Below are positions 5,950 through 29,999 of a stretch of DNA of 57,167 nucleotides, piece after piece. The first letter of the stretch is position 1. The number at the start of each line of letters is the position of its first letter. Source of the stretch: Candidatus Woesearchaeota archaeon. GTDB lineage: Archaea > Nanobdellota > Nanobdellia > SCGC-AAA011-G17 > JACPNG01. The DNA lies in assembly GCA_964444465.1 (NCBI GenBank), contig CAYUGZ010000004.1, forward strand, positions 1-57,167, written 5' to 3'. The translations under genes were made by a program, and so were the position numbers. Below the pieces are notes generated by a model. It was not told where the DNA came from. It saw only the letters and a list, made by a program, of their open reading frames with translations, and searched no databases.

Positions 5950-7233
5950 TTACTCCTTAGCTATTTTCTTAAATCCAGTGTATTTTTGTAATACTGTTGG
6001 AATTTTGATAGAACCGTCTTTTTGTTGATAATTTTCTAGTATAACAACTAATGCTCTTGAAGTAGCTAATGCTGTATTGTTTAATGTATGTAAAATTTTT
6101 CTATTTCCATGTTTATCTAAATATTTTATGTTAAGTTTTCTTGCTTGATAGTCTGTACAATTGGATAATGAAATTAATTCTCCATAATCTTTAGTTGTGG
6201 GCCTATAAACATCTATATCTAAGCTTCTATGTTTCCAATCTCCAAGTTCAGAAGAACACATCTCTACAATTCTATAAGGTAATTTTAATGCTTTAAATAT
6301 TTCTTCAGAATTTTTTAAAAGTTCAAGATAATATTTTTCTGAATCTTCAGGTTTGCAAAAAATAAATTGTTCTACTTTGTTAAATTGGTGAGTTCTCCAC
6401 AATCCTTTTTCATTTATTCCGTGGCTTCCAATTTCTTTTCTAAAACACATAGAATAAGCAAAGTATTTTTTTGGTAGATCTAATTCTTTAATTGTTTGAT
6501 CTGAATGGATCGATAATAAAGATTGTTCTGCTGTTCCAATTAAATTAAGATCTTCTCCATCAATAGAATAAACTGAGTTTTCAATTTCTTTTTTGTCCAT
6601 TGAAGCATAAATTGCTCTTTCATTTAACATTAATGGAATTTCAACATAAGTATATTTTTTTTTGTTCATAAAATCAATTGTAAATCTAATTAAAGCTTGA
6701 TTTAATATTGCTAATTTCCCTTTAAGATAATAAAAACCATTTCCAGAAGATTTTCCAGATGCATCAAAATCTGCTATGTCTAAATTTTCTATTAATTCAA
6801 CATGATTTTTTATAGGAAAATTAAATTTTGGAATCTTTCCTATCTTTCTTAAAATTTTATTTTTTGATTCATCCTTTCCAATTGGGGTTTTACTAGAAAT
6901 TATATTTGGAATTTGTAAATGTAAATCTTTAATCTCTTGCTCCAATGCTTTTTCTTTTTGTTCTATTTTTTGTAGTTTTTGTGGGATGTTTTTAGCTTTT
7001 TTTATTAATTCTTTTGCTTTCTTTTCATCATCTATTTTTTTTGCTATATTTATTTGGGAAGAAATCTTATTTCTTTCATGTTTTAAGTTATCAACTTCTT
7101 TTTTTAGTTCTCTCCATTGTTTATCTTTTTCTAAGATAGTATCAATGTATTCTAATTTATGATTTTGAAATTTTTTCTTTATATTTTCTTTTACTAACTT
7201 AGGATTCTCTCTAATTAAATTAATATCTATCAT
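5950..7233 (-). CDS. serS: seryl-tRNA synthetase
   Basis: N-terminal long coiled-coil arm plus class II core (FRKEIGSHG, GLWRTHQF, NNTALATSR). Confidence 0.92.
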   Translation of the reverse strand: MIDINLIRENPKLVKENIKKKFQNHKLEYIDTILEKDKQWRELKKEVDNLKHERNKISSQINIAKKIDDEKKAKELIKKAKNIPQKLQKIEQKEKALEQEIKDLHLQIPNIISSKTPIGKDESKNKILRKIGKIPKFNFPIKNHVELIENLDIADFDASGKSSGNGFYYLKGKLAILNQALIRFTIDFMNKKKYTYVEIPLMLNERAIYASMDKKEIENSVYSIDGEDLNLIGTAEQSLLSIHSDQTIKELDLPKKYFAYSMCFRKEIGSHGINEKGLWRTHQFNKVEQFIFCKPEDSEKYYLELLKNSEEIFKALKLPYRIVEMCSSELGDWKHRSLDIDVYRPTTKDYGELISLSNCTDYQARKLNIKYLDKHGNRKILHTLNNTALATSRALVVILENYQQKDGSIKIPTVLQKYTGFKKIAKE

Positions 7234-10254: not shown

Positions 10255-10297
10255 ATAAAATTTATGGGATTTTAGTATAAAAATTTATCTAATTTCG

Positions 10298-10316
10298 TGC
10301 TTAAAACTTTTAAGCA
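10298..10316. promoter_or_regulatory. perfect 9-1-9 palindrome tgcttaaaa-c-ttttaagca (candidate operator)
   Basis: Read directly. Shares the 13-nt core ttaaaacttttaa with 10410..10426. Confidence 0.45.
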
Positions 10317-10409
10317 AAAATTAAAACTAAAATTATTAGATTTATTGTATGTACAATATATAGAATAAACAATATATTGGATATACAATAAATAATAATA
10401 TTTATAAAT

Positions 10410-10739: not shown

Positions 10740-10943
10740 TTATCTTCTTCTTTTTGTTGCTGTTTTTCTCTTAGTAGTAGTTTTTCTTTTAGTTGCTGTT
10801 TTTCTTTTAGCAACTTTTTTCTTTCCAGAGCCTTTTTTTCTTCCTCTAGCCATTTTAGCTTTCCATACTTCTAAAGTTTTACCTTTAACGAAATAAAGCC
10901 AACCTGACTCTCTGCTTTCTCCGGATTTAACTCTAACTGCCAT
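10740..10943 (-). CDS. small basic protein with (KRKTxT)3 tail, possible nucleic-acid binding
   Basis: 67 aa. N-terminal GWLYFVKGKTLEVWKAKMARG and C-terminal KRKTATKRKTTTKRKTATKRRR, encoded by 18-nt tandem repeats. Confidence 0.5.
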   Translation of the reverse strand: MAVRVKSGESRESGWLYFVKGKTLEVWKAKMARGRKKGSGKKKVAKRKTATKRKTTTKRKTATKRRR

Positions 10944-10999: not shown

Positions 11000-11821
11000 T
11001 TATAATGTATCTAATGGATTTTTTATCGACTTTATCTTTTCTTTAGATACATGAGTATAAATTTCTGTTGTTGCTATTGAAGCATGTCCCAATAAACTTT
11101 GGATGTATCTAATGTCAACTCCATCCTCTAATAAATGTGTAGCAAATGAATGTCTAAGTTTATGTGGTGTAACTTTTTTCTTTATTCCTGCTTTCTTTGC
11201 TGCATTCTCTACTATTTTTTGTACGTTTCTAGAGGATAAAGTATTATTTTTTCCTGGAAATAAATAAATTTCATCTTTATCTAAAGTTTTTATGTAAGTT
11301 TTTAGTTCTTCAATAATAAAATTAGATAAAACAAACATCCTATCTTTTGCTCCTTTTCCAGATCTTACCCACCCTATTTTCTCGTCTAATTCTAAATCAT
11401 TTATCTTCAAACTTGTCAACTCTGATAGTCTTAATCCAGAAGAATACAAAAATTGAATAATAACTTTAGTTTTATAAGAACCTGCTGAATTTATTAATCT
11501 TTTAATTTCTTCTTTTGTTAATACAGAAGGAATGGTTTTTGGGATTTTAGGTGTTTTAAAATTAACAATATCTTTTTTTAAAACTTCGTCGTAAAAGAAT
11601 TTTAGTGAGGCTTTTTTTAAAGCTAATGATCTTGGAGTGTTGTTAATGGAGATTAAATGGGCCATATAATCTTTAATATCTTGTTCAATTATTTTTTCCG
11701 GGGATTTTTTGATGTGCTCTAAAAACTTTCTATTATGAAGTGTATAAGCCTCTATTGTTCTCTCTGAAAAACCTCTTAATTTTAGTTCGGTAGTTAATTT
11801 ATCTAATTCTTTCATTTTCAT
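11000..11821 (-). CDS. xerA: tyrosine recombinase, XerA (XerC/D-like)
   Basis: N-terminal SAM-like domain. Catalytic region is GLRLSEL...HKLRHSFATHLLEDGVDIRYIQSLLGHASIATTEIYTHV. Confidence 0.85.
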   Translation of the reverse strand: MKMKELDKLTTELKLRGFSERTIEAYTLHNRKFLEHIKKSPEKIIEQDIKDYMAHLISINNTPRSLALKKASLKFFYDEVLKKDIVNFKTPKIPKTIPSVLTKEEIKRLINSAGSYKTKVIIQFLYSSGLRLSELTSLKINDLELDEKIGWVRSGKGAKDRMFVLSNFIIEELKTYIKTLDKDEIYLFPGKNNTLSSRNVQKIVENAAKKAGIKKKVTPHKLRHSFATHLLEDGVDIRYIQSLLGHASIATTEIYTHVSKEKIKSIKNPLDTL

Positions 11822-12326
11822 GTATGATTGATTCTCTATACCAATAAGTATCTTTAGAAAAACCTTGTTTTTTTTCGCTTGTAGGATAACAAACTAATCT
11901 GTCCTCTATTTCAAGAAGATCTTTGTAGATTAGAGTCATAGTAGAGGTAAGAAGATCATACTCCATCTGATTTTCTTTTTTGTCTAAAGTGTCTAAATTT
12001 TCATTAAGATAATCTTCTAAATAACTCAATGCATCTGCTTTTAATTTAAAAGAAAGATTTGATACCCATCTTTTTCTTGCATCATGAATGGCTAAAACTT
12101 TTACATAATCTTCTTCTTCTAATTCTTGTAAAGCCCTATTTTCAAGAAACGATAATTCATGAGTTATTTCTTCAAAATTCTCAATTATTTTTTCTCTCGT
12201 TATATTTTTTTGAAGTCTTTCATAAAAAGAAGTATATTCTCTATAATAATTAGAAAAGTGTGATAAAAGAATTTGATCTTCTTCGGATTTTTCAGTTTTT
12301 TCTGCTACTTCATCACTATGAGCCAT
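11799..12326 (-). CDS. hypothetical acidic protein, co-transcribed with xerA
   Basis: 175-aa ORF overlapping the xerA start by 23 nt. BRE/TATA-like cgaaatatttatta lies about 28 nt upstream of its ATG. Confidence 0.5.
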   Translation of the reverse strand: MAHSDEVAEKTEKSEEDQILLSHFSNYYREYTSFYERLQKNITREKIIENFEEITHELSFLENRALQELEEEDYVKVLAIHDARKRWVSNLSFKLKADALSYLEDYLNENLDTLDKKENQMEYDLLTSTMTLIYKDLLEIEDRLVCYPTSEKKQGFSKDTYWYRESIIHENERIR

Positions 12327-13152: not shown

Positions 13153-13443
13153 TCATTTAGCCATTCTTGCTCTGAACTCTAAATTACGCTTTTTAGCCTC
13201 AATAGTCCCTCTTTGTTCAGCTCTTTCAGTAATCACTTCCCCAGTATGTACTAAACCTCCTCCAAAAAATCCAGCTAAGGTTGTATAAGGAATTATTTCA
13301 GACCATCTGATAACATCTTGAATATAATGATTAAGATCAAAATTAGATGGCTCTAGATTACACAATAATGTTACAGCTAAACCAGCACCAAATCCTATAC
13401 TAGTCCCTATACCTAAATTTTCATATAAATTTACACTTGTCAT
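13153..13443 (-). CDS. small membrane protein (two Gly-rich hydrophobic segments, basic tail)
   Basis: Contains LGIGTSIGFGAGLAVTLL and TTLAGFFGGGLV. Last gene of a tightly spaced operon. Confidence 0.5.
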   Translation of the reverse strand: MTSVNLYENLGIGTSIGFGAGLAVTLLCNLEPSNFDLNHYIQDVIRWSEIIPYTTLAGFFGGGLVHTGEVITERAEQRGTIEAKKRNLEFRARMAK

Positions 13444-13455
13444 TTTATAGAAAGA

Positions 13456-14094
13456 TTATCTACTTAATTTTTTAGCTTTTGATCTATTAAATGCATCCAT
13501 TCCTAAAATAAACTCAAATTCTTCAGCTTGTTGCATTGCGTCTTCTAGAGCATTATGTGTTTTTGGTTTGTTCTTCCTAAGTCCTAATTTTGTTAGGTTA
13601 TGGTCTGGATCATTTGTTGCCCCTCTTAACCATGAATTTATATCATCTCCACCGTGGCCAAAAGGATCTTGATCTCCTTCTAAAAAATTATCGAAATACC
13701 AATGAACATACATTCCATCAAATGCAATAGGTGCTGCAGCCATTACAGGTCTTTGATCTCTAGCTACTTGGCCTATCCATAATCTAAATTCATGCATAAC
13801 TTGATATGGACTTTGTCCCATTTCATCAAGTAATTCTAATACTTTTTTTGGTTGAAATTCTTTGCTTTCTGGATCATAAATTGGGTCTTCTTTCTTAAGA
13901 TCCTCTAAACATTTAAGTCCTAAAGAACCAATTTTTAATGCTTCTAAGCTAAAATTATTATTTATTGGCTTTAATTCTCTATAGAAAGTTTTTTTTGTAT
14001 CTCCAACTACAGCTGCTCCTAAAGCAATCATTGAATATTTTCCAGGTGTTCTTCCTGTAGATTCAATATCTACTGATATGTACTTTCTTTTCAT
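13456..14094 (-). CDS. DEDDh-type 3'-5' exonuclease (DnaQ-like fold)
   Basis: ExoI is SVDIESTG, ExoII is AFDGMYV, ExoIII is HNALEDA (Hx4D). Confidence 0.75.
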   Translation of the reverse strand: MKRKYISVDIESTGRTPGKYSMIALGAAVVGDTKKTFYRELKPINNNFSLEALKIGSLGLKCLEDLKKEDPIYDPESKEFQPKKVLELLDEMGQSPYQVMHEFRLWIGQVARDQRPVMAAAPIAFDGMYVHWYFDNFLEGDQDPFGHGGDDINSWLRGATNDPDHNLTKLGLRKNKPKTHNALEDAMQQAEEFEFILGMDAFNRSKAKKLSR

Positions 14095-14100
14095 TTCTAA

Positions 14101-14385
14101 TTAACTTCCTTGAATCATATATAATGCTGACTCTAATCCTTGTATATGAGGGATTAATCCTAGTATCTCTCTGTTTCTTAATACAGCCTTAAGATTCTTC
14201 TTATCAGGCCATAATCCCATAGCTTCTTTAAGCTTTCCTTCATTGATTCCTGCTTGTTCAGCTAACATTCTTATATCAAAACCATCACCTAATACACTTT
14301 TTTCAGTGCTTCCTAATCTCTTACCTTTTAGAATAGTTTGAGTATCATTTACTTGTTGTTCTGATACCTCACCCATAAGAGGCAT
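14101..14385 (-). CDS. hypothetical small protein, possible HTH
   Basis: 94 aa. DIRMLAEQAGINEGKLKEAMG could be a helix-turn-helix. Confidence 0.4.
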   Translation of the reverse strand: MPLMGEVSEQQVNDTQTILKGKRLGSTEKSVLGDGFDIRMLAEQAGINEGKLKEAMGLWPDKKNLKAVLRNREILGLIPHIQGLESALYMIQGS

Positions 14386-14406
14386 TATTAATTCTTTAAG
14401 TTTATG

Positions 14407-14949
14407 TTATCTACTAAGAATACTACCTAAACGTCCAAATTTAGGCACAATGATGTATTCTGGAGAAAGAGCCCTATAAGAACCTTCTCCTTTTTCAATA
14501 TAATGTATTCTAGAATCATCCATTTCTTTTTCTATTAAAAATTGTTTTTTTTCAAAATCTTTTCTTGTCTTATGTTTTGAAAAACTCAATAAAGTTGATT
14601 CTTCCCTTTGATATCTTCCATTCTTTTTTGAGGTAGGAATTATGTTCCAACTAGTTGATTTTTCATCTTCTTCAACACTAAAATTATTGTCCTTAAAATA
14701 TTCAACTAAAGGCTTTACAAATTCTTTAAAATCGCCCCCAGTAACTAAAGCTTTAGCAACTACTACATCTATATCTGAAGTTCCTCTTCTTAATCTAGAA
14801 GCCATGTAACTCTGAACAGCTATTCCTCCAACAATAAGTGAAGAATCAGCTGAATTAGGATAACTCTCTAATGCAGATATAGCACTAAGTGAATCTCTTA
14901 CAACTAGATCATCAATATTTCTTAAATCAAATTGTCCCTTTTTTACCAT
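14407..14949 (-). CDS. small pol-beta-fold nucleotidyltransferase (AbiEii/MNT-like)
   Basis: VGGIAVQSYMASRLRRGTSDIDVVV fits the hG[GS]...DxD nucleotidyltransferase signature; 180 aa. Confidence 0.6.
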   Translation of the reverse strand: MVKKGQFDLRNIDDLVVRDSLSAISALESYPNSADSSLIVGGIAVQSYMASRLRRGTSDIDVVVAKALVTGGDFKEFVKPLVEYFKDNNFSVEEDEKSTSWNIIPTSKKNGRYQREESTLLSFSKHKTRKDFEKKQFLIEKEMDDSRIHYIEKGEGSYRALSPEYIIVPKFGRLGSILSR

Positions 14950-15076
14950 TAACTATCATTGATTTTTTGACTTTTAAACCTTTCTATTAGTAATTATTGT
15001 ATAGTAGTAATGAATAGTAAGATCTGCTTAACTGTGCTTATCTGAAAGGCTTATAAATATTAAATAAAAGAGTCTA

Positions 15077-15379
15077 TTGAAGATGATACATTCAAGTATG
15101 CATTCTAACTGGAAAAAAAGTAAATTAGAATTGAGATTAGAAAAAAAAGGATGGATACTAACCTCCCAGAGACCAGAAGAACCATCAACTGACTTTGAGA
15201 AGAATCAGTTTAGATATTTAAGGGCTAATAATATAGAATTTAGAGTAATTAAAACAGTTTATGATAGAGATGGTATAACTCAACTACCTGGTTTTATTGC
15301 CATTTATGTCAAAGAAGATGAAATTCCAGAGTATAAACCTATTTTATTCTCCCTTATAACTGGAGAAAGAGTGGATTAG
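15077..15379 (+). CDS. hypothetical protein
   Basis: 100-aa ORF with BRE/TATA-like gaaagg-cttataaata upstream. Confidence 0.4.
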   Translation: MKMIHSSMHSNWKKSKLELRLEKKGWILTSQRPEEPSTDFEKNQFRYLRANNIEFRVIKTVYDRDGITQLPGFIAIYVKEDEIPEYKPILFSLITGERVD

Positions 15380-15541
15380 AATTATATAGAATTAAATAAT
15401 AATTTAGGTTACACATAATGTGTCTTAAGTGTAATTTTATATCGACAAAACATATAATTTTTGATTAAATGTTTTAAGCACAATATTAATTTATCTTTTT
15501 CTATGATACTTTCTTTTTATTCTTTGATATTCTATTGCTTG

Positions 15542-15865
15542 TTAATTATATTCATTTCTTAATTCTTTATAATCTCTAATTATGCCTAAAGGATCTATTT
15601 TTTGATCATATTTTTTAAAGAAAGGATTGAGGGATAACTTAAATATACAAATACTATTGACTAAACTTAATGCACTTCTAGAATTAAAATAATCACTTTC
15701 AATTTTTCCTTCTGTCCCTTTCACCATAGATCTACATACTCTAATCTGATCTTTTATTTTTTCAGCTGGAGAAGATTGATTTGCAGCTAATGAAAAATCA
15801 GGATTGAAAACTAATGCTGTTAGACCAACTAAAGTTCCAGCCATTAATAAATTAAGCTTAGACAT
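15542..15865 (-). CDS. small secreted/membrane-anchored protein
   Basis: N-terminal signal-like MSKLNLLMAGTLVGLTALVF. Confidence 0.45.
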   Translation of the reverse strand: MSKLNLLMAGTLVGLTALVFNPDFSLAANQSSPAEKIKDQIRVCRSMVKGTEGKIESDYFNSRSALSLVNSICIFKLSLNPFFKKYDQKIDPLGIIRDYKELRNEYN

Positions 15866-15950: not shown

Positions 15951-16517
15951 ATGGTTTTTAATTTTTTTAAGAAAAAAAGTGATCCTCATAAGAGATTAGA
16001 TGATCTACATTTTCATTTAGGTGATTCTTTTACAAAAATAAAAAAAGATATTGTTAATTTAGGGAATTGGATAACTCATTTTGATTCTAAAACAAAAAAT
16101 CATGAAGATAAATTAAATTATGTTCTCAGGAAATTAGAATTATTAGAAAATTTGTTACAAGAAAAAGAAGATGTTGTTGAAAATGAAGAAAAAGTTGAGA
16201 AAAAGGAGGAGACGATTGAACGCATTCAATCGTTCAATCGTTCAAATCAATCGATCATGAACGTTCAATCGCTAAAAAATCTCACTCCAGCACAAAAACA
16301 GATACTTGCTTTGATGAGTTATGCTGGTGGGCCACTCGGCTATGATGATATGTCAAAAAAATTAGGGTTAAATATTGTAACAGTTAGAAGACATTTGAAT
16401 GATATCAAAAGAAGTGGTATAAAAGTAGAAGAAAAAGTGAGTGTAAGAGGGAGAAAAAAAGTATTTCTTTTAGATAAAAAAGTCAAAAATGTAGTGTTAA
16501 AACAAAGAAAAAAATGA
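15951..16517 (+). CDS. coiled-coil + C-terminal winged-helix protein (paralog of 16890..17483)
   Basis: N-terminal DSFTKIKKDIVNL motif, coiled coil, QSFNRSNQSIMNVQS linker, then an HTH (GYDDMSKKLGLNIVTVRRHLNDIKRSG). Confidence 0.6.
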   Translation: MVFNFFKKKSDPHKRLDDLHFHLGDSFTKIKKDIVNLGNWITHFDSKTKNHEDKLNYVLRKLELLENLLQEKEDVVENEEKVEKKEETIERIQSFNRSNQSIMNVQSLKNLTPAQKQILALMSYAGGPLGYDDMSKKLGLNIVTVRRHLNDIKRSGIKVEEKVSVRGRKKVFLLDKKVKNVVLKQRKK

Positions 16518-16570
16518 TAATTCTACCCTCTAGATAGTATAAAAATAACCATTTATACAACAGATTATCT

Positions 16571-16892
16571 GAAAAGTGAGGGTTAATAAGTTAAATTATT
16601 GATGAAATATGTAATTATTTCGCTTAATTATAAGGAAAAGTGAGTTTATTATGGATTATACCGAATATAATATGTAAAATAATGATAATTTTAAGAAATA
16701 TAGCCTCTTTATTGTATAATATGTGAAAAGTGAGAGTTCATAACATAGATTATCAATAAAATAGGTAGCCATTGAGTAGATAGGATAAAAAAAGTGAGTT
16801 TATAGTGAATTCAGCTAGATATTCTCCATAAAAGTGAGGTATTTTAGGAAAAAATGGGTAATTATGTAGAAATATGTGAAAAGTGAGGGTTA
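16571..16892. repeat. array of six AAAAGTGAG(N)TT iteron-like direct repeats
   Basis: Copies start at 16571, 16635, 16725, 16789, 16829 and 16878, giving spacings of 64, 90, 64, 40 and 49 nt. All are in the same orientation. The last copy overlaps the stop codon of 16890..17483. Confidence 0.7.
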
Positions 16893-17483
16893 GATATCTG
16901 AAAGCCTCTTCTGATCAGGATCCATCTGATAATAGAGACTAACAAGTTTAGGTTTTAATCCTAATTCTCTAAATTTTTTATCTATAGAAAGATAAGTGAG
17001 TCTATTATTAATTCTGTTTCTTTTTATTGGGGCTTTCTTTTTTATTGCCATGCTTATATATGAACGTACACATGATTCTGTAAGTGAGATTTTATCAGCA
17101 ATATCGGAATAAGTGACTTTTTCCTTCTCATCTTCCAATTGATAGAGTGTAAGCAGTGCAAGAAGCTGCCCCCTAGAAAGTGCCTCTATAACGTCTATAA
17201 TGGCAAACGGGTGATTGATTGATTGATTGATTGATGATTGATTGATTGATTGAACCCCTTGATTTCCTATGGAACTTTTTATGAAATATTGTTCATTAGG
17301 CTCTATCTCCTCAAAATTCTGCGTTTTTTCATTTTTTTCAGAAATTAGTGTTTTTATCAAATCCACAAGCTCGATAATCCTCTCCTTATTCTTATCTATC
17401 TCTAATTTTAATAGATCCATATCTTCTTTTACACTAGAAAAAGCATTTTTTATATTGTTCTCAAAATTAGGATCATTACTCAT
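16890..17483 (-). CDS. coiled-coil + C-terminal winged-helix protein (paralog of 15951..16517)
   Basis: N-terminal NAFSSVKEDMDLL motif, coiled coil, QSINQSSINQSIN linker, then an HTH (TYSDIADKISLTESCVRSYISMA). Confidence 0.6.
   Translation of the reverse strand: MSNDPNFENNIKNAFSSVKEDMDLLKLEIDKNKERIIELVDLIKTLISEKNEKTQNFEEIEPNEQYFIKSSIGNQGVQSINQSSINQSINHPFAIIDVIEALSRGQLLALLTLYQLEDEKEKVTYSDIADKISLTESCVRSYISMAIKKKAPIKRNRINNRLTYLSIDKKFRELGLKPKLVSLYYQMDPDQKRLSDI
17214..17254. repeat. tetranucleotide microsatellite (GATT)5-GAT-(GATT)4 inside a CDS
   Basis: Read directly. On the coding strand it is (AATC)n, encoding the QSIN repeats. Confidence 0.85.
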
Positions 17484-28600: not shown

Positions 28601-29044
28601 GATATGAACATTGGAATTGTATGGAGTGCTTACAAAAAAATTCCTTCAATGATGGAAAAAGTTTTAGGTCAGATGGAAATTGCTTCTAAAATAAGAGCTG
28701 TAGATGAGATTGATGTTGCTAGATTAACTATAGAGAGACATTTTATAAGAGATATAAAAGGAAACTTAAGAAAATTCTCAATGCAACAATTTAGATGTGT
28801 TGCTTGCAATGAAAAGTTTAGAAGACCCCCTTTATCTGGTAAATGTACAAAATGTAATGGAAAATTAATTTTTACAATATCCCAAGGTAGTATTGTTAAA
28901 TATTTAGCACCAAGTATGCAGCTAGCAGAACACTATAATGTTTCTAATTACTTAAAACAGACTTTAGAGTTGACTAAGCAAAGAATAGAGGGTGTTTTTG
29001 GAAGAGAAAAAGAAAAACAAGAAGGATTAACGAAATGGTTTTAA
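25655..29044 (+). CDS. polC: DNA polymerase D (II) large subunit DP2
   Basis: 1129 aa with conserved DP2 blocks (GRPEKAK, GLAPHISA, CEGDEN, C-terminal Zn motif CVACNEKF...CTKCNG). No intein is evident. Confidence 0.93.
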   Translation: MMKMINKYFDDIEKEVNKCYELANKARALNLDPEDKSEVILARNMVERVEGLISTVAPQIKNSGMAERIVELEEEYDKLDWRVALKIALEVAQAKFCEFKDKREAMEVGIRVSLAYLTSGVVSSPLEGFVALKIKETNDSKEYFCLMFGGPIRSAGTTIICGMLLAADYVRKNMGYAPYDPSEQEVKRMVTELYDYHERITNLQYLPSEEEIEFLMRNLSLQISGDPTEKVEVSNYKNLPRIETDFIRNGPCLVLGEGLAQKSPKMWVKISKWKDDFNLQNWDYINDFVKLQKKIRSKGEVKKETEKIAPDYNYIKDLVAGRPILTHPLRTGGFRLRYGRSRISGLSSMAMHPATMIILDEYIATGTQLRYERPGKSSAMEPCDTIEGPIVKLKNGDVLFLDSEQEAKDNLKNVKEIIFLGDFLVNYGEFFNRGHRLVPCGYNEEWYQQEIKKLNTKDKLIEKLKRDRFFKITAKQAFELSKEHKIPLHPRYTYHWNDLDKEQFNSFIEWYKKGSLNESKILLPFVYDLTSEIKERDPKRVLELLGVPHKVAEKEYVVIEGDHAYTLYNILKLDKLPKEGNVLELINKISKIIIRDKSGTFIGARMGRPEKAKLRKLTGNPHMLFPVGDQGGRMRNLQTALTKGKITSEFSTFYCNKCKKETIYPKCEVCEEKTEMGGFKRRNIDVDHYFKQALKKIKLKEYNELIKGVRGTSNKDHIPENMAKGILRAQYNLNVNKDGTIRYDMTEMPITHFKAKEIGTSIEKLKKLGYEKDINGKELENEDQLIEIRPQDVILPACDEAREEGADKVLTRIANYIDDLLVKFYGLKKFYNVKQREDLIGHLVIGLAPHISAAIIGRIIGFSKTQGCFSHPLWHSAQRRDCEGDENCVMLLMDSLLNFSRHYLPNNRGATQDTPLVLTSILTPSEVDDMVFDMDLVWEYPLELYEAAQEYKDPREIKIEQLINRLGKESQFEDWGFTHDVSDMNIGIVWSAYKKIPSMMEKVLGQMEIASKIRAVDEIDVARLTIERHFIRDIKGNLRKFSMQQFRCVACNEKFRRPPLSGKCTKCNGKLIFTISQGSIVKYLAPSMQLAEHYNVSNYLKQTLELTKQRIEGVFGREKEKQEGLTKWF

Positions 29045-29568
29045 TTATATATTAAATCATAATTTTTTAATGATTTAATCATAGAGTTAATTGCATGTTG
29101 ATTATTATCAATTCTTTGATTTGGATTTCTTAAACTTTTTTTGAAGCCACCTAGAGCGTTTATATCTTTTTTATTAGTAGTTTGTAATTGCAATATAAAT
29201 TTATTTGATAGTTTAATCGACTCTCTATATTTCCCTATTCTTGAATCACCTAACTCTTTAGCTACTAAATATACATCATTCATTCCTTCATTATAAACAG
29301 CAGTTGAAATTCCTGGTGAAGTGCCATATCCACCTAAAAAAGTTTCATTTTCAGATTGAGATATTTGTTTTAACATACTCCAATCATTTAGAAGAAAGAC
29401 ATAATCAGCGTATTTTCTTTTTTTTGTCAAAAAAAATGCTTTTGAATATGCTTGAGAATGCCAAGTTATCATAGCTACATTTGGATTGTCTAGAAAATAA
29501 TTGTAGTAGTAAGGAAATGCATTTTCTACAACTTCTAAGTATATTCCATCTTCTGTATATTCATACAA
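29041..29568 (-). CDS. hypothetical protein, possibly a 5'-truncated remnant
   Basis: The ORF starts at TTG. The frame stays open 26 codons further upstream with no ATG. Confidence 0.3.
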   Translation of the reverse strand: MYEYTEDGIYLEVVENAFPYYYNYFLDNPNVAMITWHSQAYSKAFFLTKKRKYADYVFLLNDWSMLKQISQSENETFLGGYGTSPGISTAVYNEGMNDVYLVAKELGDSRIGKYRESIKLSNKFILQLQTTNKKDINALGGFKKSLRNPNQRIDNNQHAINSMIKSLKNYDLIYN

Positions 29569-29663
29569 CTTAACTATTGATAATAGTGCCTCACCTGGAA
29601 AATATTCAATGATTGCTTTAGGAGCAGCTGTAGTTGGAGAGATAGAGAGATATTAAATGGAAA

Positions 29664-29999
29664 GTGTGGGGTATCTTTAATTATGATAGATCTTGCGGAT
29701 CTTGTGGTGGAAAAGTTAAGATTAATGGAGCTTGTAGTATTTCTACTCCCTCAAAACTAGGAAATTCTTGTACTGTTGGAAAAGGAATTTGTCAAAAAAC
29801 AGGAACAATACAATGTGATGGTAAATGTAGTGCCACTCCAGGAAGTTCTTCAGCAGAAGTATGTGATAATCTAGATAATGATTGTAATGGGGTTGTAGAT
29901 AATGGTTGTGATAATGATAAAGATGGATTTGTAAATCCTACTTTAACATGTAGTGGGAATTTTAGGGATGGAAATGGGGTAGTTAGACCTTGCCCTTAA
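29664..29999 (+). CDS. Cys-rich fragment with MopE-like CDNLDNDCNGVVDNGC motif, possible remnant
   Basis: GTG start and no signal peptide. Shares its motif with the 978-aa protein downstream. Confidence 0.35.
   Translation: MWGIFNYDRSCGSCGGKVKINGACSISTPSKLGNSCTVGKGICQKTGTIQCDGKCSATPGSSSAEVCDNLDNDCNGVVDNGCDNDKDGFVNPTLTCSGNFRDGNGVVRPCP

Follow-up and report, generated by a model that had tools for sequence, protein, structure and literature searches.

Do four small, tightly packed open reading frames (ORFs) on a contig of a tiny, marine Candidatus Woesearchaeota archaeon make up an undescribed defence or toxin module? The window analysed here is a 57,167-nt stretch of DNA (contig CAYUGZ010000004.1 of assembly GCA_964444465.1), in which the four ORFs occupy positions 13153-14949 of the minus strand. 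A first-pass annotation had described them as an operon of a small nucleotidyltransferase (NTase, gene 1), a 94-aa protein that may contain a helix-turn-helix (HTH, gene 2), a DEDDh exonuclease (Exo, gene 3) and a small membrane protein (gene 4). The coordinates that it gave are exact, as are the spacers of 21, 6 and 12 nt between genes 1 and 2, 2 and 3, and 3 and 4, all four ORFs being co-directional, and the motifs that it quoted are present in the proteins. The explanation that we favour, with slightly better than even confidence, is that the locus goes back to three ancestral genes (an NTase that a nonsense codon interrupts and that is probably inactive, an intact Cap18-like exonuclease and an orphan), which do not form a conserved four-component system. 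We thus describe the locus as a degenerate pair of an NTase and an exonuclease, both of them new representatives of known families, and not as a new defence system.

Coding status of the four ORFs was assessed with a codon-usage log-odds score trained on the confident housekeeping genes of the window. Genes 1 to 4 score 0.51, 0.56, 0.60 and 0.50, compared with 0.43-0.59 for held-out control genes, and their alternative frames score negative throughout. Because these scores match the controls, all four ORFs are coding, or were coding until recently. Searches with Rfam and ARAGORN found no RNA genes in the interval.

Genes 1 and 2 are one interrupted gene

Gene 1 (14407-14949, minus strand, 180 aa) and gene 2 (14101-14385, minus strand, 94 aa) are one ancestral gene, which makes the locus one of three ancestral genes and not four. 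The reading frame is continuous across a single TAA (...ILSR*HKLKELIMPLMGEV...) at 14407..14409, and the apparent 21-nt intergenic gap at 14386..14406 consists of seven in-frame codons, HKLKELI, a conserved coding sequence that reads YKLKPLI in the orthologue at a related locus, L049. This orthologue, an intact protein of 282 aa, can be aligned with the read-through product as a single high-scoring segment pair that crosses the stop (42% identity, E 3e-79), its 'VLMRNYKLKPLIVP' lying opposite the 'ILSR*HKLKELIMP' of the window and an Asn codon (AAT) opposite the TAA. A second syntenic orthologue, at locus L129 on a 100-kb Tara contig, is also intact (288 aa). The read-through product aligns over its full length in a 50-sequence alignment of the family and end to end with homologues of 255-290 aa; gene 1 matches the N-terminal ~170 residues of the homologues and gene 2 their C-termini, with a score of 1.4e-9 for gene 2 against the family hidden Markov model. 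From read-through alignment, structure prediction and Foldseek comparison, the interrupted gene spans 14101..14949 on the minus strand, or 282 codons including the stop. No second NTase copy was found in the window.

The first-pass annotation had treated genes 1 and 2 as separate and likened them to a type IV toxin-antitoxin pair in reversed AbiE order. Gene 2 has no Pfam HTH match, and in alignments it falls on the helical C-terminal lobe of the NTase homologues; because it is the C-terminal third of the NTase, and not an independent small HTH antitoxin, there is no reversed AbiE pair. The continuity of genes 1 and 2 already contradicts the larger proposal of a four-component defence or toxin module, in which an NTase toxin and a small HTH antitoxin would be joined by an exonuclease and a membrane protein. 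Such a module would account for the co-directional, tightly packed ORFs, for an NTase of the AbiEii-like superfamily and for an exonuclease that matches a PADLOC defence model. However, PADLOC has no match for genes 1, 2 and 4, the four families co-occur nowhere else among the loci examined, and the surrounding region is conserved chromosomal synteny. We consider a four-component module very improbable.

The stop codon itself is not an assembly error, since it is carried by ten independent contigs from different samples, which are at least 99.9% identical over the parts that they cover and all encode an identical 180-aa gene 1 product. Programmed read-through or recoding of the TAA would yield a full-length NTase, and a perfectly continuous frame followed by seven conserved coding codons fits this idea. 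The same continuity is, however, equally expected from a recent nonsense mutation, and TAA ends 22 of 34 long ORFs in the window, more than any other genuine stop, which makes recoding unlikely. We know of no TAA recoding in archaea, and we find read-through barely credible here.

A MenT-like nucleotidyltransferase family

An exhaustive HMMER search over 1.84 billion representatives recovered 66 clusters of NTase homologues, mostly of 255-290 aa; a word-index homology search with gene 1 returned self-matches only, and no match to genes 1, 2 and 4 turned up in profile searches of Pfam, PADLOC, PHROGs, NCBIfam and PDB sequences. The family is confined to DPANN archaea. No relatives of the NTase were found in IMG/VR, and a viral origin was rejected.

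Residues G42, R55, D59, D61, K170, R173, D222 and D225 are invariant columns of the 50-sequence alignment. Gene 1 encodes the N-terminal alpha/beta lobe with pol-beta motifs I and II (hG[GS] ... DxD), represented by G41 G42 and D59-I-D61, together with K170 and R173 of motif III, and gene 2 encodes the C-terminal helical lobe with D222 and D225 in a motif IV-like D.FDIR. Motifs III and IV are in this way not on one polypeptide in the window; in the L049 and L129 orthologues they share one. When 50 homologues were compared with Pfam, 19 matched AbiEii (PF08843; E<=0.1, best 9.7e-6), 18 matched DUF6036 and 17 matched NTP_transf_5.

An AlphaFold2 (AF2) model of the joined protein, run with the family alignment, reached a predicted local distance difference test (pLDDT) score of 95.7 and a predicted TM-score of 0.92, and is bilobed, alpha/beta in its N-terminal lobe and helical in its C-terminal lobe. 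In the PDB, the eight best Foldseek matches are all MenT3/TglT (Rv1045) of Mycobacterium tuberculosis, with full-length alignments (E 6e-5 to 3e-4, probability 1.0); next in rank come a fungal NTase-like protein, another Rv1045 variant and, after these, TENT5/FAM46. The NTase profile (A1) did not reach MenT3 among PDB sequences, so that MenT3 was reached by structure comparison alone. From these Pfam matches and this model we assign the window protein to the AbiEii-like pol-beta superfamily as a predicted MenT/AbiEii-like bilobed NTase, and at the superfamily level the first-pass call of an NTase was correct. SMODS (PF18144), the domain of a cGAS/DncV-like nucleotidyltransferase (CD-NTase), was matched neither by gene 1 or the fused protein nor by any other member of the family.

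The window NTase shares with MenT3 and AbiEii a bilobed architecture, an N-terminal pol-beta lobe with GG...DxD, a helical C-terminal lobe, conserved Lys/Arg of motif III and Asp of motif IV, and a total length of ~280 aa. It differs from MenT3 in sequence, identity being ~10-12%, and from both in falling below every Pfam threshold, in carrying ~30 extra residues between motifs III and IV, and in being interrupted by a stop codon. The setting differs as well: no AbiEi/COG5340 or MenA antitoxin gene lies upstream or elsewhere in the window, and the DPANN family occurs mostly in gatD/gatE/aspS or ribosomal neighbourhoods. Across 28 loci of the family no conserved small upstream partner was found, the neighbours being DUF1003, gatD, gatE and ribosomal protein genes.

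MenT3 is a toxin of the DUF1814/AbiEii family that adds CMP onto tRNA 3'-CCA ends, and its toxicity needs D80, K189 and D211 (PMC7450476; PMC11541572). D211 is the counterpart of motif IV, whose family-invariant residues D222 and D225 sit in gene 2. By analogy with MenT3, gene 1 alone, which lacks the motif-IV Asp, would need complementation in trans by gene 2 and should otherwise have no activity.

A further position sets two family members apart. At residue 165 (~14455-14457), where all 48 other members have the Asp of a 'PEDI' motif, the window has Tyr and L049 has Phe. These two NTases are also the only members with an exonuclease next downstream.

Gene 3 is predicted to encode a Cap18-like exonuclease

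Gene 3 (13456-14094, minus strand, 212 aa) is, from its sequence similarities, an intact Cap18/Rv2179c-like DEDDh 3'-5' exonuclease, a new member of a known family homologous to Cap18 of the cyclic oligonucleotide-based antiphage signalling system (CBASS). The first-pass annotation had recognised the exonuclease but had not been able to place it in any named system. The five catalytic residues D9, E11, D126, H180 and D185 all lie in invariant columns of a 28-sequence alignment, and gene 3 matches PADLOC model PDLC00753 ('Effector; Exonuclease') at 6.5e-33 and E. coli Cap18 (PDB 7T2S) at 1.8e-19. Its score against PF16473, 22.7 bits, is under the 27-bit cut-off; PF16473 is recorded for most of its homologues. 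We found 59 homologues. The closest form an archaeal clade, 45-57% identical to gene 3, with a ~25-aa insertion (residues 63-86), and the viral contigs of IMG/VR contain distant relatives only and none that is close.

In E. coli upec-117, the source of 7T2S, the membrane protein Cap19 is encoded next after Cap18 (PMC9122588). The CBASS Exo clade has been defined biochemically by selective 2'-5' phosphodiesterase activity (bioRxiv 10.1101/2025.03.04.641389): CBASS-associated Exo/Cap18 is reported to cleave selectively the linear, 2'-5'-linked intermediate that its cGAS-like partner makes, and thereby to set an activation threshold (2025-26 preprint, 10.1101/2025.03.04.641389). Gene 3 resembles Cap18 in its five DEDDh residues, in significant sequence similarity and in its place directly 3' of a nucleotidyltransferase gene and 5' of a small hydrophobic protein. 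Unlike Cap18 in CBASS, it has no CD-NTase, HORMA/TRIP13, E1/E2/JAB or Cap17 partner beside it, and it belongs to a separate, insertion-bearing archaeal clade in which most of the genes are solitary. Where E. coli Cap18 has 'EDF', gene 3 has 'NNF' at the aligned position; residue numbering suggests that D49 and E51 of VcExo, which contact guanine, belong to this region.

Gene 3 contains one arm of an exact 49-bp inverted repeat. Codons ~16-32 (TPGKYSMIALGAAVVG; 14000..14048) recur in reverse at 29592-29640, inside the 95-bp spacer between the divergent genes 29041-29568(-) and 29664-29999(+). Boundaries of the repeat are sharp and the flanks are unrelated. The copies were confirmed in independent assemblies, one in L011, L012, L014 and L017 and the other in L146-L150, and no inverted junction was found among these contigs. 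Possible explanations of the repeat are a site of inversion, antisense regulation of gene 3 and a scar left by recombination.

Gene 4 is a lineage-specific orphan

Gene 4 (13153-13443, minus strand, 96 aa) is a codon-plausible, lineage-specific hydrophobic orphan. In an index of 5.8 billion proteins we found no homologue except a truncated, 70-aa copy of gene 4 itself, and no homologue was present in any fetched locus, including the syntenic L049 and L129. Of the two hydrophobic segments first ascribed to gene 4, residues 10-28 are of transmembrane (TM) grade (Kyte-Doolittle 1.74), while residues 50-68 fall below it (0.95); a basic tail is present. Single-sequence AF2 gave a helical model of low confidence (pLDDT 59), too weak to justify a fold search. 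Compared with PADLOC, Pfam and Cap19-like proteins, gene 4 showed no detectable similarity, and no signal-activated CBASS effector was recognised.

Candidates for a conserved small membrane partner encoded 3' of Exo were also compared. These were c16, with five TM segments and an HExxH motif, a Cap19-like protein with four TM segments, and the small TM ORFs of L052 and L053; all are unlike gene 4.

Gene neighbourhoods across related loci

Co-occurrence was assessed from both sides of the putative pair. On the NTase side, 28 genome loci of distinct DPANN species were compared, in all of which the NTase gene is uninterrupted. Within a reach of 6 kb, none of the 28 has a homologue of gene 3 or gene 4 near the NTase. 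In 17 of them (L022, L027, L029, L031-L035, L037-L041, L043, L045, L046 and L048) the NTase, at ~6001-6800 in most, is just upstream of gatE, with gatD upstream in 14 of the 17, often a DUF1003 membrane protein gene between gatD and the NTase, and aspS downstream. Another group adjoins the ribosomal protein genes L18e and L13 together with a XerA-like recombinase. The gatD/gatE/aspS setting places a MenT-like, tRNA-modifying fold in a tRNA-centred neighbourhood.

The exonuclease side comprised ten loci from three look-ups and 80 metagenome loci, ~90 in total, and L049 alone among them pairs Exo with the NTase family of the window. Close archaeal Exo homologues are solitary genes in varied housekeeping contexts. 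Distant bacterial ones belong to type III CBASS (SMODS-HORMA-TRIP13-Cap17-Exo) in ~22 loci, and to type II and III CBASS on plasmids. The co-occurrence of all four families that a defence module would lead one to expect is hence largely lacking: gene 4 has no homologues at all, and most members of the NTase family lie among housekeeping genes.

Comparison of gene order in three related genomes clarifies the history of the region. In L129 the order is NTase, a 133-aa ORF and Int; in L049 it is NTase, Exo, a 133-aa ORF and Int, with 1 nt between NTase and Exo; in the window it is the split NTase, Exo, gene 4, o85, o133, o175 and Int, with a 6-nt NTase-Exo spacer. The window shares ArgRS, o142, o197, o188, NTase, Int, NADK and PAC2 with L129, and NTase, Exo, Int, PadR, NADK and PAC2 with L049. 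The description of the region as an ORFan block consequently holds only in part, as some of it is conserved chromosomal synteny. Therefore, the NTase is the ancestral resident; two of the three genomes have Exo, and one has gene 4. Between L049 and the window, Int is 81% identical and PadR and PAC2 are each 80% identical, compared with 42% for the NTase and 55% for Exo.

Gene content of the relatives varies in the interval between the NTase and a fast-evolving ORF. At 11000-11821 and 11799-12326 this ORF precedes a XerA-like tyrosine recombinase, overlapping the recombinase start by 23 nt, and its 133-aa positional counterparts in L049 and L129 share only a faint motif, H(D/L)xxxxW(V/L)SxL. 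An att-bounded mobile element beside tRNA-Lys was considered and rejected, as there are no convincing direct repeats and the region is syntenic in relatives.

These neighbourhoods bear on the possibility that NTase and Exo meet by chance. In that case a core translation or tRNA NTase of Woese- and Pacearchaeota would have had a general RNA or DNA 3'-end exonuclease inserted downstream of it in one sub-lineage. The position of the NTase 5' of gatE or beside L18e and L13, the solitary archaeal Exo homologues, the NTase without Exo at the same position in L129, and the lack of any close relative of either protein on viral contigs are all consistent with this. However, the 1-6-nt spacers have been kept although NTase and Exo have diverged well beyond Int and PadR, both Exo-linked NTases replace the otherwise invariant D165, and independent operons of AbiEii and Exo exist in bacteria. 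We regard chance juxtaposition as rather unlikely.

The bacterial operons, on metagenome contigs, have the order AbiEi-AbiEii-Exo (L059, 3642-5513; L085, 2906-4777; L057, 1402-4000; L124, 3242-5549). AbiEii and Exo overlap by 17 nt in L059 and L085 and by 4 nt in L124, and L093 has a divergent arrangement. As in the window, an AbiEii-superfamily NTase is followed by a Cap18-like Exo, the coding regions overlapping or nearly touching. In contrast to the window, the NTase is a bona fide PF08843 toxin (3e-29 in L059 and L085, 4.5e-15 in L124), an AbiEi-like gene lies upstream in L057, L059 and L085, and Exo is of the short bacterial CBASS type, 177-185 aa; the gene upstream of the L124 NTase encodes 274 aa. 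A limited literature search found no description of an AbiEii-DEDDh or AbiEi-AbiEii-Exo arrangement.

Two features accompany these operons. Exo is followed in L059 and L085 by a second AbiE pair in convergent orientation, and the 5-TM HExxH protein that is encoded directly after Exo in L057 is found beyond the convergent pair in L059 and L085.

Possible decay and the state of the NTase

Variation within the population was examined in contigs at least 99.9% identical to window positions 13180-15637 (L011-L020). They come from ~10 unrelated samples, among them Tara Oceans, JGI, Logan runs and one NCBI assembly, GCA_002896295.2. Only two coding single-nucleotide polymorphisms (SNPs) were seen, and both create new nonsense codons: CAA>TAA at codon 82 of gene 2 in L016 and GAA>TAA at codon 69 of gene 4 in L014. 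A G>A change upstream of gene 1, at 14999, was also present in these contigs. The fixed TAA, the nonsense SNPs and the 70-aa form of gene 4 are suggestive of decay, though no more than that in view of the very small numbers and the shortness of the contigs. It is odd that samples from different environments should be so clonal, and a cosmopolitan clone or a contaminant could explain it.

Several observations weigh against a degenerate locus with a MenT-like NTase. Gene 2 has full codon bias (0.56), retains the invariant Asp residues and has an ATG 21 nt past the stop, and a functional two-piece enzyme therefore remains conceivable. Because the contigs are at least 99.9% identical, they do not allow a within-species test of selection on gene 2 from the ratio of nonsynonymous to synonymous substitutions. 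The contigs that carry the nonsense SNPs are short and may be of low coverage, and both changes could be errors. No Pfam NTase model matches gene 1 or the fused protein, and the Foldseek TM-score to MenT3 is low, at 0.38-0.46 (~0.45). Adjacency of the NTase and Exo is seen in only two related genomes and could be chance.

The first of these points leads to an alternative that we think improbable. Genes 1 and 2 would assemble in trans as a working MenT-like NTase that acts as a toxin or makes a signal, Exo would be its enzymatic antidote or threshold-setter and gene 4 a membrane effector or accessory, giving an AbiE-like or CBASS-like NTase-Exo(-TM) system in which Exo trims the NTase product. 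In the AF2 model the stop falls exactly at the lobe boundary, 10 residues past motif III and directly after helix 163-179, as would suit a functional split. The adjacency with Exo is kept in L049, tight AbiEii-Exo operons occur in bacteria (L059, L085, L124), CBASS Exo degrades the intermediate of a partner NTase (bioRxiv 10.1101/2025.03.04.641389), and a TM protein, Cap19, follows Cap18 in E. coli upec-117 (PMC9122588). On the other hand, no other family member is split likewise, the family is otherwise stand-alone in housekeeping contexts, gene 4 is found in the window genome alone, further nonsense alleles affect genes 2 and 4, and an antitoxin or sensor gene is absent.

Two candidates for a recurrent functional split of the NTase family were rejected, the apparent split in L047 being an artefact of N-masking and P0066/L145 being a truncation without a downstream C-terminal remnant. 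P0061 and P0069, whose loci were not located, were left out of this check.

Setting of the locus in the window

Gene content of the window is archaeal, with PolD DP1 and DP2, Cdc6/Orc1, LonB, PAC2, ArgRS and SerRS, and its GC content is ~27%. Relatives of the locus carry labels of Woese-, Pace- or Nanoarchaeota only, and the host is therefore a DPANN archaeon. The genes of the locus are probably co-transcribed. A candidate TATA-like TTTAAAAG on the minus strand at 14971..14978, 22-29 nt 5' of the gene 1 ATG, is a possible archaeal promoter of a leaderless operon transcript.

Several repeats lie in the neighbourhood. A unit of approximately 154 bp occurs three times at 16534-16891, each with GAAAAGTGAG(G/A)GTT. 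The copies fill the interval that separates two convergent genes for HTH proteins, 15951-16517(+) and 16890-17483(-), each of them kept in L129, L025 and L026, and may be regulatory or resemble iterons. Positions 10279-10323 and 15455-15499 form an inverted repeat of 45 nt with 80% complementarity. Its arms, themselves hairpins (GCTTAAAA...TTTTAAGC), bracket the segment from PadR to o100, including the recombinase and the four-ORF locus, and may simply be similar terminator or operator hairpins. Directly downstream of the PadR gene, 10745-10816 holds 3-4 imperfect 18-bp tandem repeats (TTTTTCTCTTAGTAGTAG-like).

Proposed history and implications

We suggest the following history for the locus, starting from the gene structure, family and fold assignments, synteny and lack of co-occurrence observed here. 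By analogy with MenT3, the DPANN NTase probably adds nucleotides to RNA or tRNA 3' ends, and Exo would remove 3'-terminal nucleotides or short 2'-5'/3'-5' oligonucleotides. The pair was inherited from an L049-like ancestor, and the two enzymes may formerly have been a 'writer/eraser' couple. In the window the TAA after codon 180 separates the N-terminal lobe with motifs I-III from the C-terminal lobe with D222 and D225; with its lobes on separate ORFs, the enzyme has most likely been inactivated, and recently. The four-ORF arrangement now appears to be decaying.

RNase PH, a 3' exoribonuclease, counteracts MenT3 (PMC7450476; bioRxiv 10.1101/2024.03.07.583660). This precedent, together with the tight adjacency of NTase and Exo, their faster divergence, the shared loss of D165 and the bacterial operons, weakly favours a former writer/eraser couple, its weight limited by the small number of independent lineages and by the frequent occurrence of both families in defence islands. 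A bolder reading, which we hold to be doubtful, is that an AbiEii-superfamily NTase and a Cap18-like Exo form a recurrent, undescribed two-enzyme module in both DPANN archaea (the window and L049) and bacteria (L059, L085, L057 and L124). If so, Exo would erase or threshold the NTase product, either tRNA 3'-end nucleotides or short oligonucleotides, analogous to the action of CBASS Exo on cGAS intermediates and of RNase PH against MenT3, and the DPANN NTase syntenic with gatD/gatE/aspS would be a tRNA-directed enzyme.

For annotation, the locus illustrates that a single nonsense codon can make one gene mimic a toxin and small-antitoxin pair when sequence alone is read, and its failure as a candidate defence system spares follow-up effort. 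Cap18-type Exo pairs with AbiEii-type NTases besides CD-NTases, which could extend the principle that Exo thresholds its partner NTase beyond CBASS. Finally, a DPANN-restricted family of MenT-like NTases among tRNA and translation genes hints that, in reduced archaea, this fold has a role related to tRNA and not that of a toxin.

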